From a virus: a DNA stretch of 5,674 bases. The notes under the pieces were generated by a model. It was not told the origin of the DNA, searched no databases, and worked only from the letters and a program-made list of their open reading frames with translations. The stretch spans positions 1-5,674 of the IMG/VR virus record IMGVR_UViG_3300045988_037143; one strand, written 5' to 3'. Made by a program: the position numbers and the translations under genes. Positions 1-5,674 of this stretch are shown here, one piece after another. How positions within the stretch are numbered: position 1 is the stretch's first letter; every line of letters starts with the position of its first letter.

Positions 1-77
1 CGTTGTTGCTTATCTGGTTATATACACCCTGAGTGATTGCCGCCATGGTGTTATAGCCCATTTGTTCGAACATGCTT
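1..77. repeat. Terminal redundancy: 1-77 is identical to 5598-5674. This is an assembly overlap of a circular genome (unit length 5597 nt).
   Basis: Base-by-base comparison of the first 77 nt (cgttgttgcttatctgg...gaacatgctt) with 5598-5674 shows identity. The VP2 reading frame stays open and in frame across the junction. Confidence 0.9.
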
Positions 78-2505: not shown

Positions 2506-2725
2506 CGTAAATGTTCTCCTTTTCGTTCTCAAACAGGCCTGTTTTCTCGTCGAATTTTGCCAGGCGCACTAGCCGATAGTCGCTCGGCGTCTTACTCATC
2601 ATGTTGCGTTCATCGGTCAGCGCAATCTTAAAGTTGCGCTCTGCTACCTTGTCTTCTCGTTCCGTAAAGATAGTGATGTAGCCCATCACACACTGGTCAT
2701 AGATGCCGTATACGTTGTTGCTCAT
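2483..2725 (-). CDS. Hypothetical small protein (80 aa)
   Basis: Starts at the internal ATG at 2725-2723, preceded by GGGGGAAAAACAA. The 129-aa track ORF extends it upstream from a TTG through a low-complexity His-rich stretch built from CAT repeats, which is unlikely to be real. It overlaps the VP3-like start by 23 nt. No recognisable motifs. Confidence 0.45.
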   Translation of the reverse strand: MSNNVYGIYDQCVMGYITIFTEREDKVAERNFKIALTDERNMMSKTPSDYRLVRLAKFDEKTGLFENEKENIYDGVSLSK

Positions 2726-2829
2726 TTGTTTTTCCCCCAGTTTTTGATGATGTCGGTGCCCATTGCGATGAGCGCAAAGCTTGCGCTGCACATTGCGATG
2801 ATGCTGGCGATGACTCCTACCCATATCAT
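2722..2829 (-). CDS. 35-aa single-pass membrane peptide (MIWVGVIASIIAMCSASFALIAMGTDIIKNWGKNK). Candidate small membrane or lysis-type protein.
   Basis: Translated by hand from the minus strand. ATG at 2829-2827. The TGA stop overlaps the ATG of the downstream 80-aa ORF (ATGA coupling). There are 26 hydrophobic residues, then the charged tail KNWGKNK. An alternative in-frame GTG at 2838 has GAGGGGG 9 nt upstream (38 aa). It is absent from the ORF track because it is under 60 aa. Confidence 0.4.
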   Translation of the reverse strand: MIWVGVIASIIAMCSASFALIAMGTDIIKNWGKNK

Positions 2830-2937
2830 GATGTTCACAGTCTGATACCCCCTCGCATTGCGCCGCTCCCAAGGTTGATGGCCTTGGTTTTTCGTGCGGT
2901 CTTGTTGTAAATTTTTGCGTCCTTGGATTTGCGGACT

Positions 2938-3163: not shown

Positions 3164-3310
3164 TTACTCCTCGGGCTTGTTTCCCTCTACTGCATGATAA
3201 ATCTTGTCCAGCATAGCCAAGATTTTGCGGATGTTGTTAAACAGCGCGTCGATTTCCTTGATAGACAGAGCGGACACCTTCTTTCTTAAGTTATTTTGTA
3301 TAAATGGCAT
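3164..3310 (-). CDS. Possible 48-aa ORF (MPFIQNNLRKKVSALSIKEIDALFNNIRKILAMLDKIYHAVEGNKPEE)
   Basis: Hand-translated. Its stop TAA lies within the GAGGAGTAA RBS of the 73-aa gene. It has no clear SD, and its ATG sits inside a candidate -10 element. The call is weak. Confidence 0.25.
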   Translation of the reverse strand: MPFIQNNLRKKVSALSIKEIDALFNNIRKILAMLDKIYHAVEGNKPEE

Positions 3311-3336
3311 TGTAAAACAGCACTTTCCGCTGTCTA
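3309..3336 (-). promoter_or_regulatory. Candidate secondary sigma70-like promoter just downstream of the terminator (minus strand TAGACA-16 nt-TACAAT)
   Basis: Minus strand TAGACA (complement of 3331-3336), a 16-nt spacer, then TACAAT (complement of 3309-3314). This is a 5/6 + 5/6 match to consensus. It could re-initiate transcription of the downstream genes after the strong terminator. Confidence 0.3.
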
Positions 3337-3352
3337 ACTATTTATGTTGTAT

Positions 3353-3390
3353 CAAAAAAAACAGGGCTTGTCAAGCCCTGTTTTAAAATT
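3353..3390 (-). terminator. Rho-independent terminator. Perfect palindrome ACAGGGCTTG-T-CAAGCCCTGT flanked by A8 and T-rich tracts. Bidirectional, but strongest for the minus strand (stem followed by T8).
   Basis: Plus strand: CAAAAAAAA-CAGGGCTTGTCAAGCCCTG-TTTTAAAATT. Minus strand: ...AGAGAAAAATAA-TTTTAAAA-CAGGGCTTGACAAGCCCTG-TTTTTTTTGAT. It sits immediately after the stop of the 58-aa ORF. Confidence 0.7.
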
Positions 3391-3565
3391 ATTTTTCTCT
3401 TCTGTTTAGTTCGTCTTTTGCTAGCGCGTGGATGTATTCACAACGGTAGCTTATGTCATTACATGGGCATTTTTCGCAATCTCTGTTGCAGTGCTTGAAT
3501 TTGTAGTCCATCCATCTCAAGGCCTCTGTGTCAAGGTCTTTGTACGTTGCTCTTAAAGTTTTCAT
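3389..3565 (-). CDS. 58-aa Cys-rich small protein (MKTLRATYKDLDTEALRWMDYKFKHCNRDCEKCPCNDISYRCEYIHALAKDELNRREK). Possible zinc-binding small protein.
   Basis: Hand-translated. ATG at 3565-3563, preceded by AGGGGAT with a 7-nt spacer, 20 nt downstream of a consensus promoter. The TAA stop abuts the terminator. The Cys/His cluster H25-C26-x3-C30-x2-C33-x-C35-x6-C42-x3-H46 resembles a zinc ribbon or knuckle. It is absent from the track because it is under 60 aa. Confidence 0.55.
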   Translation of the reverse strand: MKTLRATYKDLDTEALRWMDYKFKHCNRDCEKCPCNDISYRCEYIHALAKDELNRREK

Positions 3566-3591
3566 AGTCTTTATCCCCTTTCTTTAATTGG

Positions 3592-3620
3592 ATTATACCA
3601 CAACTTTGCTTATTTGTCAA
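3592..3620 (-). promoter_or_regulatory. Perfect consensus sigma70 promoter on the minus strand: TTGACA - 17 nt - (TGg)TATAAT with an upstream A/T-rich UP-like tract
   Basis: The reverse complement of 3591-3640 is AACTTTTTTTCAAAAACCTC-TTGACA-AATAAGCAAAGTTGTGG-TATAAT-C. Both hexamers match 6/6 and the spacer is 17 nt. The extended -10 TGn is present. The predicted TSS is near 3585, giving a 20-nt leader with an SD for the 58-aa ORF. Confidence 0.7.
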
Positions 3621-3661
3621 GAGGTTTTTGAAAAAAAGTTTAGATGTGCTATGCCTTGAAG

Positions 3662-3701
3662 GTCATGCGGTAGGCGCGGTGCGCCGTACGGAGAGCATGA
3701 C
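3662..3701. other. GC-rich nested stem-loop in the intergenic region. Outer stem GTCATGC (3662-3668) pairs with GCATGAC (3695-3701). Inner stem GTAGGCGC (3670-3677) pairs with GCGCC-(G bulge)-TAC (3681-3689), loop GGT.
   Basis: Inverted repeats read directly from the sequence. This is the only GC-rich island in an otherwise AT-rich non-coding region. Confidence 0.4.
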
Positions 3702-3743
3702 GAGACCTTCCGGTTTCGCTCGTCGGACGGCCTTTAATTCGAT

Positions 3744-3948
3744 TTTTCCACACTTTCAACATTTTCAACAGGTTTTCCACGAAAAGTTGCACAAATGGTT
3801 TTGTGCATATTGCTACACTTTCAACAATTCAACAAGTTATCCACAAAAGTATCAACATCAAAATAATCCAGAAAATATCGTTCCAAGGATAAAAATTCAT
3901 GGTATTCAACATTTCAACACTCCCTACTATTACGACTACAACAAGTTA
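3744..3948. repeat. Iteron-like array. There are six perfect TTCAACA heptamers in three closely spaced direct-repeat pairs: 3755/3764, 3820/3828 and 3905/3913. Flanking repeats are CACTTTCAACA (twice), TTTTCCAC (twice) and CAACAAGTTA (twice).
   Basis: Counted directly in the AT-rich intergenic region. Pair spacing is 8-9 nt, and the pairs are 65 and 85 nt apart. There is no minus-strand ORF here. The plus-strand 129-aa ORF across it is low-complexity. Confidence 0.5.
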
Positions 3949-3968
3949 ATAATAAATAATAATAATAT
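3949..3968. repeat. (AAT)n / AT-only tract (aataataaataataataata) immediately 5' of the GC hairpin
   Basis: Read directly. A 100% A/T 20-mer. Confidence 0.6.
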
Positions 3969-4008
3969 CATGCGCGTGCGTGCGCGATTACGTGCGCGCG
4001 CGTGCATG
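3969..4008. repeat. 40-nt alternating pyrimidine-purine (CG/TG) element. It forms an 18-bp hairpin (catgcgcgtgcgtgcgcg - atta - cgtgcgcgcgcgtgcatg) with 14 Watson-Crick pairs and 4 G:T pairs. It has potential to form Z-DNA or an ssDNA hairpin.
   Basis: Each arm alternates Py-Pu perfectly for 18 and 18+ nt. Arm pairing was checked position by position. It is embedded in 100% AT flanks. Confidence 0.6.
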
Positions 4009-4027
4009 TCAATATGAAATAAAATAC

Positions 4028-4063
4028 TCAGCCAAGTAACATACTTGATAGTTACTTGGCTGA
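4028..4063 (-). terminator. Perfect 13-bp inverted repeat (TCAGCCAAGTAAC / GTTACTTGGCTGA) with a 10-nt loop. On the minus strand it is followed by TATTTTATTT. Probable terminator downstream of VP4. The plus-strand loop is ATACTTGATA.
   Basis: The reverse complement of 4028-4040 equals 4051-4063 exactly. A second small hairpin TGACAC-caaa-GTGTCA (4065-4080) overlaps the VP4 stop codon. Confidence 0.6.
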
Positions 4064-4077
4064 GTGACACCAAAGTG

Positions 4078-5097
4078 TCAAAATACACCTTTGGCTTTGC
4101 TCATCTTTTTGGACATGGATGCTTCCTTGTCCTTTAGCTGCTCTGCGTATGACTTATCTGTTTCCGCGTTTCTTTCGATTAGGGACGCAATGGCTTTTTC
4201 CTGCCGATACTGTTTGATTCTCCACGCTTTTTCAGGGTTCTCCGCTTCCAGTTTTCGCCAGTAGTATTCCGGTATGGCTGCTCTCTTGCCGTTGGTAAGC
4301 TGTATGTATCCCTGCTGCCAGAGTCTCTCTTGATGGTCTCGGAACCATTGGTCTCCGAGTCCCGGCTTTCGGCTCATTGTGCAAAATGGTGGTATTAAAC
4401 CCATTTTTTGGAAACGCTTTTTGTCGTTGCCGTACAGCTTTTTAGTTACGTACCCTGCAACATAATTATATGTTTGTGGTACTGCTTGTGCGATGTCAAC
4501 TGTACCCTGCCCCCAGATTTTGACTAGCTTATCACTTGTGTAGTGACCGTGTCTTGATAGCTTATGGATTGGCTTTAAGTCGTCTGGGTGCCATCCGTAC
4601 AGTATCATGTGATAGTGTGGTCTCGCTGTGTTGTCTCCATACTCTCCGGCTAAAAAGTATCTCAGAGGCTCTTTGATGGCCTTTCTTAGCCTTTTAATAA
4701 AGAGCTGGGTATCCTCCACGCTCAATGTTTGCGTCGTTCTCGGACGCTCTGAGGTGCCTTTCCAGATATTTATGCCGCCTTTGTAGATTTCGCCTGTTTC
4801 TGTGTCTTGTGTTGGTACATGGTCATCGTCGTACGTTAGCGTGATAAACCAGACACTTTCTTTGTCGTATCCGTATGCTTCTAGCTCCATCCGCGTCGCC
4901 CAGTCTTTGCGTTTGCGCAGTCTGCACCCGGTACATTGTCCACATGGTATCAACATTACATCTTTGCGGTACATTAAATTTTCGTACGTCATTTTGGTCT
5001 TGTGTATCTCGTTAAAAGAGGCGAGTGAGTACACTCGCCCACTCGCCTCTCTGTCGTGAGGTACATAAAACCGAATTAACGGTTTATTGCATCCCAT
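4078..5097 (-). CDS. VP4: Replication initiation protein VP4 (339 aa), an HUH rolling-circle endonuclease
   Basis: The N-terminus MGCNKPLIRFYVP has the M-x-C-x-x-P-L form common in gokushovirus VP4. The CGQCTGC zinc-binding cluster is present. Motif I is FITLTY (residues 84-89). Motif II is HYH (residues 161-163, nt 4609-4617, verified). Motif III is YVAGYVTKK (residues 212-220, nt 4438-4464, verified), near-identical to phiX174 A protein YVAKYVNKK with its two catalytic Tyr. The ATG directly abuts the VP2 stop (TAAATG). Confidence 0.93.
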   Translation of the reverse strand: MGCNKPLIRFYVPHDREASGRVYSLASFNEIHKTKMTYENLMYRKDVMLIPCGQCTGCRLRKRKDWATRMELEAYGYDKESVWFITLTYDDDHVPTQDTETGEIYKGGINIWKGTSERPRTTQTLSVEDTQLFIKRLRKAIKEPLRYFLAGEYGDNTARPHYHMILYGWHPDDLKPIHKLSRHGHYTSDKLVKIWGQGTVDIAQAVPQTYNYVAGYVTKKLYGNDKKRFQKMGLIPPFCTMSRKPGLGDQWFRDHQERLWQQGYIQLTNGKRAAIPEYYWRKLEAENPEKAWRIKQYRQEKAIASLIERNAETDKSYAEQLKDKEASMSKKMSKAKGVF

Positions 5098-5674
5098 TTA
5101 TTTAAGTTTCCCTTTCCAATATTCGATGTTTTTGCTCCCGATGAAGTCTCTTCCCGGTTTGTAGTTGAGCTCATCTTTGGTCGGTTGTCTCCCTGCACCG
5201 CCGACGCCACTGTTTAGGTTGCTGAGGTCGTTGAAGACGTCCTTGAATGCATTAAACGCTTTGTCTGCGCTTGTGTGTGACCAGCTTGTAGCGTCTCCAA
5301 CCGCTTGTGCTGCGTTGTACCAGTTACTTTTGCTTTTGCTCCATGTGTTGTTGTGGTTCTGGCTTACTCCGAGTGCGCTTGCGGTCGCTGCACTGCTGCT
5401 TGCGAGGCCCATACTTGCCCCGCTGATAGTTCCCTGACTGCCGCCCGGTGTGCTTGCTCCGCCCTGTTGGTATGCTAAGATAGGGTTAATGCCTGCTTTT
5501 CGCATATCTTCCACGGCTCGCTGATAAGCTGTATTGCTCATTTGTTCTTGCCAAGCTCTGTTTTTGGCTGCTTCTGCGCTGTTGTAGGACATCGCCGCGT
5601 TGTTGCTTATCTGGTTATATACACCCTGAGTGATTGCCGCCATGGTGTTATAGCCCATTTGTTCGAACATGCTT
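5098..5674 (-). CDS. VP2: VP2 minor capsid / pilot protein, C-terminal part. Continues upstream across the circular junction to the ATG at 346.
   Basis: The 190-aa track ORF (MFEQMGYNTMAAITQGVYNQ...GGASTPGGSQGTISGASMGLASSSAATASALG...) is open to the window edge and in frame with 78..346. It has a Gly/Ser/Ala-rich low-complexity core typical of VP2. Its TAA is adjacent to the VP4 ATG. Confidence 0.85.
   Translation of the reverse strand, partial: SMFEQMGYNTMAAITQGVYNQISNNAAMSYNSAEAAKNRAWQEQMSNTAYQRAVEDMRKAGINPILAYQQGGASTPGGSQGTISGASMGLASSSAATASALGVSQNHNNTWSKSKSNWYNAAQAVGDATSWSHTSADKAFNAFKDVFNDLSNLNSGVGGAGRQPTKDELNYKPGRDFIGSKNIEYWKGKLK
5598..5674. repeat. Second copy of the terminal redundancy (identical to 1-77)
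   Basis: See the 1-77 feature. Confidence 0.9.

Follow-up and report, generated by a model that had tools for sequence, protein, structure and literature searches.

We analysed the complete circular genome of a gut gokushovirus, IMG/VR record IMGVR_UViG_3300045988_037143, over its recorded length of 5,674 nt (the window), in which Pfam and PHROG scans placed every gene on the minus strand. Between the gene encoding a J-like DNA-binding protein and the gene encoding VP5, an open reading frame (ORF) of 38 codons fills a 114-nt slot of its own, with 4 nt common to each neighbour (Table 1). Its GTG-initiated product is VNIMIWVGVIASIIAMCSASFALIAMGTDIIKNWGKNK. The stop codon overlaps the ATG of VP5 (2725-2723) as ATGA (...aaaaacaaATGAgc), in the geometry of translational coupling, as described in the original prediction, a reading of the window's letters that had proposed a hidden 35-38-aa membrane peptide at this position. 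A second overlap, missed in that reading, joins the TGA of the J-like gene (2837-2835) to the peptide GTG as GTGA (...cagacTGTGAac). The ORF itself exists as proposed; the part that did not stand is the 35-aa form. This version begins at an internal ATG at 2829, three codons in, which is missing from several relatives (position 4 is not Met in L003, VNVIITVG..., or in L005, VNIIIW...), so that the 38 aa starting at the GTG represent the conserved product.

Conservation was examined in 72 genomes, namely the window, 9 GenBank genomes and 62 IMG/VR contigs found through VP5. An ORF lies in exactly this slot, from the J stop to the VP5 start or to within a few bases of it, in 42 of the 72. Of the 42 relatives with the segment, 41 keep the ORF open, whereas stops occur in the +1 frame of every one and in the +2 frame of many. 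The products belong to two subtypes: type A, of 38 aa, with the consensus MN(I/V)xI(W/A)xGxxxxxIA(M/I)CSAxFALIAMGIDI(I/V)KNWxxxK, and type B, of 32 aa (e.g. MSAVFASMTMAFLAAGFYLVINAINIIKDWFK). The start codon is mostly GTG, with ATG in L020 and TTG in L036; it is never CTG, and the third base of the last Leu codon of J is never C. Frame-disrupting indels in homologs had been named at the outset as evidence that would speak against a peptide gene. In the open ORFs all length changes are in-frame (-30 nt in L052, +12 nt in L053 and +3 nt in L024), and one genome, L022, is frameshifted. Two alleles are possibly decaying: in L022/L083 the frameshift truncates the ORF at 21 aa, and in L052/L111 the in-frame 30-nt deletion removes 10 transmembrane (TM) residues and leaves a 28-aa product.

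We then compared dN/dS by frame, using pooled Nei-Gojobori estimates with codon bootstrap 95% intervals. Results showed values of 0.39 (0.19-0.66) for type A and 0.36 (0.21-0.60) for type B in the peptide frame, 0.87 and 0.76 in frame +1, and 0.99 and 1.99 in frame +2, the His-rich frame that is also the VP5 frame in the window. This comparison of the peptide frame with the His-rich frame, suggested together with the original prediction, thus came out in favour of the peptide, the other two frames ranging from 0.76 to 1.99, and third-position variation predominates in the ORF. Since values of 0.36-0.39 are found in this frame only, the peptide is under purifying selection in its own frame. This selection is much weaker than that on the neighbours: dN/dS is 0.04 (type A) and 0.03 (type B) for J, whose product is 92-97% identical among relatives, and 0.06 and 0.08 for VP5, and the pN of 0.165 for the peptide compared with 0.027 and 0.058 for the neighbours indicates a several-fold faster evolution. 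Both subtypes share IDIIKxW despite their nucleotide divergence. These data establish the ORF as a gene, and we consider it very probable that this gene encodes a membrane helix.

The same DNA can be read as a 129-aa His-rich ORF starting at TTG (2483-2872), which the original prediction had regarded as spurious. We reached the same view, given that its dN/dS is ~1 and that it is interrupted by stops in several type-A and most type-B relatives. We also rejected the ORF as an N-terminal extension of VP5: in L005 and L002 the phase between peptide and VP5 differs, so that the extension would not join VP5; the PF20577 match begins at residue 5 of the 80-aa form; and 30 genomes have the VP5 start placed right on the J stop. 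In none of the nine GenBank relatives is any feature annotated in the gap between J and VP5, which bears out the suggestion that a gene of less than 60 aa had stayed hidden there, a conserved single-helix peptide with frame-specific constraint.

Residues 3-27 reach a maximum of 2.29 in a 19-residue Kyte-Doolittle window (KD19), the highest value among coding-strand open frames of at least 30 codons, and the peptide ORF is the only TM-grade ORF on the coding strand of the window. AlphaFold2, run on a 23-sequence alignment, returned one helix spanning residues 3-37 (pLDDT 86.7), and we infer that the peptide inserts into the membrane. Residues 14-27 are nearly invariant within type A; I30, K32 and W34 are invariant across both subtypes (alignments A1 and A2), and [AST]I[DN]IIK[NDE]W is the only stretch common to the 38-aa and 32-aa forms. 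Most of the conservation falls in the C-terminal two-thirds of the helix and in the interfacial motif, and it is spread beyond one helical face (variability moment about 0.2), a pattern that fits a specific helix-helix partner or self-assembly. A reading as lipoprotein or signal peptide was discarded: the N-terminus (M-N-I-M-I) is uncharged, IAMC departs from the canonical lipobox, and most type-B members lack Cys17.

Purine-rich motifs resembling a Shine-Dalgarno sequence (SD) lie 7-11 nt upstream of essentially every gene. The one that serves the peptide is drawn from Arg-Gly-Gly codons of the J-like gene, and in the 30 genomes that have no peptide ORF the same motif, spacing and overlap serve the GTG start of VP5, so that this initiation context is demonstrably relied on by the phage. 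The SD of VP5 is in turn formed by codons 34-36 of the type-A peptide (TGG AGG AA- or TGG GAG GA-; TGG GGG AA- in the window), with the A-rich codons that follow acting as spacer, while in type B the ORF stops earlier and is followed by TAAGGAG. The Lys-rich tail, which had been singled out as a feature of the peptide, does not hold up as such: its charge is not conserved and codons 34-36 coincide with the VP5 SD. It is therefore largely a by-product of translating the VP5 ribosome-binding region, SD and spacer included.

A profile search of 5.8 billion proteins retrieved 39 clusters, unnamed or labelled "hypothetical protein [Microviridae sp.]", and nearly all clusters with a recorded contig were on contigs no longer than a microvirus genome of ~5-6 kb. 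The sole long peptide-bearing contig (L128, ENA ERZ1305919 NODE_2963; 11,966 nt) proved to be a ~5.4-kb genome repeated head to tail as a dimer, an assembly concatemer and not a prophage. An exhaustive HMM search of 1.84 billion representatives found family members only, plus one repetitive 2829-aa protein judged to be a false positive; a search of Rfam gave no match, and no paper describing the peptide was found in the literature. As judged from these searches, the peptide is a narrow small-protein family confined to one gut gokushovirus clade. An origin by duplication of the 5′-end of VP5 was considered, since the N-termini are alike (VNIIIW and MNTNVY), and rejected because local nucleotide alignments scored no better than shuffled sequences did (p 0.05-0.75). 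In one contig (L139, ENA ERZ19243459 NODE_27452, 234-840) a 135-nt tandem duplication with its junction at an ATCACA microhomology gives the order J, intact peptide, chimeric ORF P0035 (VP5 residues 1-18 followed by peptide residues 12-38) and VP5; coverage is only 3.7x, and this is either an assembly artefact or a real recombinant.

Ten distant gokushovirus genomes were also scanned. The scan was uninformative: T-rich genomes yielded many spurious hydrophobic overprinted ORFs, and four others of window-like size (L132, L135, L136 and L138) yielded none. Two of these more distant relatives, MG945694.1 (L135) and KX513868.1 (L136), have the same gene order with an M15 peptidase instead of the peptide, located in the variable region between VP4 and VP5 (1915-2304 and 2011-2403, respectively), and their coding strands contain no TM-grade ORF. 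According to a proposal of Roux et al., peptidases of this type serve as endolysins.

A 77-nt direct repeat at the termini of the window (1-77 and 5598-5674) indicates a circle of 5,597 nt assembled with overlapping ends. Nearest to it in GenBank are gut "Gokushovirus WZ-2015a" genomes and Microviridae sp. genomes, obtained from the faeces of humans, monkeys and pigs. The peptide belongs to the gene string orf48, orf73, J, peptide, VP5, VP3, VP1, which is preceded by a promoter-like site and followed by a GC-rich hairpin that is likely to form the 3′ end of the transcript carrying the peptide gene (Table 1). The VP2 pilot gene runs from a start near 347 (minus strand) across the junction to 5098, and the N-terminus of its product (MALAAIGSALLGIGKQLL...) is a hydrophobic segment rich in Gly/Ala. 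The gene orf58 (3389-3565, minus strand; MKTLRATYKDLDTEALRWMDYKFKHCNRDCEKCPCNDISYRCEYIHALAKDELNRREK) encodes a small Cys-rich protein with no family match and stands alone between the strongest promoter, a perfect TTGACA-17-TATAAT with an extended -10 TG (3592-3620, minus strand), and a 12-bp bidirectional hairpin terminator at its 3′ side (3358-3384). This perfect promoter, together with SD-like motifs before nearly every gene, suggests that the host uses canonical sigma-70 and SD signals; in our judgement this argues against a Bacteroidota host. Scans of GTDB genomes with VP5 and with VP1 gave no host match and no evidence of lysogeny or prophages for the clade, and none of the window ORFs contains a peptidase, lysozyme or endolysin domain according to Pfam and PHROG.

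Within the region between VP4 and orf58 (3566-4077), a block at 3800-3935 (minus strand) has most columns at least 95% identical in 66 genomes, is far more conserved than the synonymous sites of the genes and contains repeated TGTTGAA motifs. It is probably a cis-acting element, either a replication origin or a regulatory region, and not a gene. A 27-aa hydrophobic ORF lying in this block (3829-3912, minus strand; MLNTMNFYPWNDIFWIILMLILLWITC) was rejected as a universal lysis gene, as no third-position pattern is seen in it and only 45 of 66 genomes have it intact.

Table 1. Features of the window discussed in the text (window positions)
Feature	Position	Strand	Basis or remark
VP1 capsid	392-2032	minus	PF02305
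VP3 scaffold	2029-2532 (likely ATG at 2505)	minus	PF09675
VP5 (Phage_ORF5), 80 aa, downstream of the peptide gene	2483-2725	minus	PF20577 E=8e-19; phrog_1670
Small membrane-peptide gene, 38 codons and stop	2722-2838	minus	GTG 2838-2836, TGA 2724-2722; ORF listing
Hydrophobic TM segment, residues 3-27 (IMIWVGVIASIIAMCSASFALIAMG)	2758-2832	minus	KD19 maximum 2.29; AlphaFold helix; per-position conservation
Juxtamembrane motif TDIIKNW, consensus [AST]-I-[DN]-I-I-K-[NDE]-W	2737-2757	minus	Translation, alignments, profile
SD-like GGGGGA for VP5, within peptide codons 34-36	2733-2738	minus	GGAGG in most type-A relatives
SD-like GAGGGGG, 9 nt upstream of the peptide GTG, from J-like Arg-Gly-Gly codons	2848-2854	minus	AGGAGG in relatives
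J/VP8-like DNA-binding protein, 39 aa, basic, upstream of the peptide gene	2835-2954	minus	phrog_10695 E=2e-8
VP4 replication initiator	4078-5097	minus	phrog_942 (replication initiation protein); PF23343
VP2 pilot	from 5670, spans circle junction	minus	phrog_8742 (pilot protein for DNA ejection)
Promoter-like site TAGACA-16-TACAAT ahead of orf48-orf73-J-peptide-VP5-VP3-VP1	3309-3336	minus	10/12 matches, by consensus only; putative role
Intrinsic-terminator-like hairpin after VP1	355-377	minus	9-bp stem, 8 GC pairs, T-run

A phiX-type lysis gene is missing from gokushoviruses, and no lysis gene has been identified in them (PMC7062461, PMC3394797), in agreement with the premise of the original prediction; phiX174 is, according to the literature, the only microvirus with a known lysis mechanism. 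The product of the gene described here is best read as an accessory membrane-acting peptide. As to what it does at the membrane, we ranked a late effector of egress or lysis first, followed by superinfection exclusion or membrane modulation, a role like that of phiX174 K, a translational relay and, last, no gene at all. A late membrane-targeting effector or enhancer of egress or lysis is thus our leading guess, and a tentative one. Ribosomes that reach the TGA of J would re-initiate on the GTG overlapping it, or initiation would occur de novo from the GAGGGGG motif, giving the 38-aa peptide, whose stop would pass the ribosomes on to VP5 through the ATGA overlap. The helix would insert into the host cytoplasmic membrane, where the conserved half of the helix, rich in small residues (I14, A15, C17, S18, A19, F21, A22, L23 and G27), together with IDIIKxW would form the functional core. 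The peptide might then pack against a host membrane protein of envelope synthesis, like phiX174 E and levivirus LysM, or self-associate and dissipate the membrane potential, like holins and type-I toxins. Either way, the outcome would be a faster or enhanced release late in infection.

This reading accords with operational criteria that Chamakura et al. (2020) applied to candidate single-gene lysis (sgl) genes, which comprise a length of at least 25 codons, an SD and a transmembrane domain (TMD) (PMC7693330). The peptide gene has 38 codons with a GTG start (GTG, ATG or TTG in relatives), an SD 9 nt upstream, and a segment that combines the KD19 value given above, a rough Hessa-scale sum of ~-0.4 and a single AlphaFold helix. 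Known Sgl proteins can be peptide-sized, as LysM has 37 residues (PMC12506998), and fast evolution relative to the neighbouring genes, which Sgls also show, fits a role in lysis. The lack of an identified lysis gene in gokushoviruses and of a peptidase or endolysin domain in the window is in keeping with it as well.

A series of observations weighs against such a role, beginning with the distribution of the gene. The ORF is missing from 30 of the 72 close relatives (42%), in which the J stop overlaps the VP5 start directly. In alignments of near neighbours the difference is a clean, cassette-like indel of ~114 nt with its ends in direct repeats of TGAA(C/T): the J stop and peptide codon 2 form one copy, the peptide stop and VP5 codon 2 the other. 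Presence and absence are interspersed on a tree of J and VP5 and require at least 13 Fitch changes on the VP1 tree and the VP4 tree alike, which implies that the cassette was repeatedly lost, gained or exchanged by recombination; type B forms largely one clade, type A and absence are intermixed, and plus and minus genomes co-circulate in the same datasets. Most cassette-minus genomes have no compensating TM-grade ORF in any frame of the coding strand, and a minority have TM-grade ORFs only in the conserved block at 3800-3935. A compensating accessory gene was likewise sought and rejected, as no ORF family of the variable region is anticorrelated with the cassette, the best association with its absence involving 4 genomes (uncorrected p 0.03). 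The peptide gene therefore cannot be the required, essential lysis gene of the lineage, because 30 of 72 genomes lack it without a substitute, and lysis cannot depend on it across the clade, given the at least 13 changes. It is thus not the missing universal lysis gene of gokushoviruses: the gene is dispensable, conditionally useful and not the clade's sole lysis gene.

The properties of the peptide itself add to these points. Its helix is only moderately hydrophobic, at ~-0.4 kcal/mol over 19 residues (a rough Hessa-scale sum). The net charge of the tail varies from about -2 to +3 across relatives by our count, so that the positive-inside rule cannot set the topology, which is uncertain. The peptide is homologous neither to E, K or holins nor to any entry in Pfam, PHROG, NCBIfam, PADLOC or the PDB, the best PHROG results being two families of unknown function at E ~0.05, with none from Pfam at E<=0.1. 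In the leviviral screen only 33 of 293 sgl candidates, about one in nine, were active in Escherichia coli, and no effect was seen for 178 candidates in which a TMD was predicted (PMC7693330); since so few candidates were active, a TMD by itself is weak evidence of lysis.

Comparison with known systems gives a similarly mixed picture. Like phiX174 E, the peptide is encoded by a member of the Microviridae, has no muralytic domain and would be expressed with morphogenesis genes, and it can be likened to the N-terminal transmembrane helix of about 35 residues in which the activity of E resides. E is an inhibitor of MraY that depends on SlyD and has an essential Pro21; none of 59 family sequences contains a proline, although the N-terminal hydrophobic helix is present. 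E also differs in its length of 91 aa against 38 aa, with no sequence similarity according to Pfam and PHROG, and in being overprinted (+1 frame) inside the external scaffold gene, whereas the peptide has its own genomic slot. Moreover, E is essential, while the peptide is missing from 42% of close relatives. Holins, pinholins and type-I toxins of the TisB, Hok and Fst class share with the peptide a short Gly/Ala/Ser-rich helix compatible with self-association and a short polar C-terminus. However, the window genome encodes no partner endolysin for a holin, the M15 peptidase occurring only in more distant relatives, and the peptide shows neither the antisense-RNA or toxin-antitoxin context of type-I toxins nor a family match. 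LysM (SglM) of levivirus M, a 37-residue MurJ inhibitor, is of the same size class and has a single TM helix (PMC12506998). More generally, the Sgls of single-stranded RNA phages are lineage-restricted and fast-evolving, as is the peptide, and were selected as candidates by the same ORF length, SD and TMD (PMC7693330). They belong, however, to a different virus realm without homology to the peptide, and each such phage is thought to need its sgl whereas the peptide is optional.

Next in rank, and rather unlikely in our estimate, is superinfection exclusion or modulation of the host membrane. The peptide would then sit in the membrane of the infected or carrier-state cell and block delivery of competing microvirus DNA, for example by interfering with the VP2 pilot conduit, or alter a membrane protein or a defence of the host; the benefit would be conditional and have nothing to do with lysis. 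A patchy cassette with at least 13 transitions and co-circulating plus and minus genomes is typical of accessory 'moron' functions; constraint is relaxed relative to core genes, and the conserved interfacial motif suggests a specific partner. However, the known accessory functions on record for microviruses (PMC9239249) comprise methyltransferases and genes associated with lysis, peptidases among them. In addition, no homology to known superinfection-exclusion (Sie) proteins or to defence and anti-defence models was detected, the clade offered no sign of lysogeny or prophages, and the gene belongs to the structural operon rather than to an early or immunity region.

The protein K of phiX174 offers another model, which we regard as quite unlikely to apply. 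K is a non-essential membrane-associated protein of 56 aa that affects burst size, and a peptide of this kind would act at the membrane to tune replication or assembly, and through them the burst size, without direct lytic activity. Like K, the peptide is small, hydrophobic and non-essential, natural variants having shown its dispensability, and it is encoded among morphogenesis genes with coupling that would give stoichiometric expression with J and VP5. On the other hand, it has no sequence relationship to K (no PHROG or Pfam match), K is overprinted across the A and C genes, and its own function is poorly defined; the data do not separate a K-like function from that of a lysis enhancer.

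It is very improbable that the ORF serves mainly as a translational relay, that is, a spacer that sets the re-initiation rate of VP5 with its amino-acid sequence being secondary. The 4-nt overlaps at both ends, the coincidence of the last type-A codons with the VP5 SD and the direct coupling of VP5 to J in cassette-minus genomes would suit a relay, yet dN/dS is well below 1 with third-position variation dominating, and the helix and IDIIKxW are kept in two subtypes that differ in nucleotides and 3′ junctions. Finally, a chance ORF in an intergenic spacer, or an N-terminal extension of VP5, is hardly credible: an open frame of 38 codons is no rare chance event in a gap of 110 nt, all nine GenBank relatives leave it unannotated, L022 is frameshifted and L052 lacks 10 TM residues, but selection is specific to the frame, valid start codons are conserved where other frames carry stops, the VP5 phase differs in L005 and L002, and VP5 begins at the J stop in 30 genomes.

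Overall, an ORF read by hand has become a defined family, comprising about 40 clusters and two subtypes and having a mapped conserved core. It is a clear example of a gene of less than 60 aa missed in the annotation of every GenBank relative, and it illustrates that the translated ribosome-binding site of a downstream gene can mimic a functional 'basic tail'. Gokushoviruses are among the most abundant gut phages with single-stranded DNA and their route of exit from the host is unknown (PMC7062461, PMC3394797). The peptide does not solve this problem and, because its gene is optional, the general lysis mechanism of the clade still lies elsewhere. A bolder version of the egress reading, which we consider unlikely, is that the peptide is the first identified lysis effector of a gokushovirus, a 'protein antibiotic' of 32-38 residues whose half-helix and IDIIKxW motif would block an essential membrane protein of envelope biogenesis in an uncultured gut host, with cassette-minus variants using a slower, non-lytic or alternative release. 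If so, the plus/minus polymorphism would amount to a switch in release strategy. The natural near-isogenic plus and minus genomes make the peptide a testable candidate with a built-in control.

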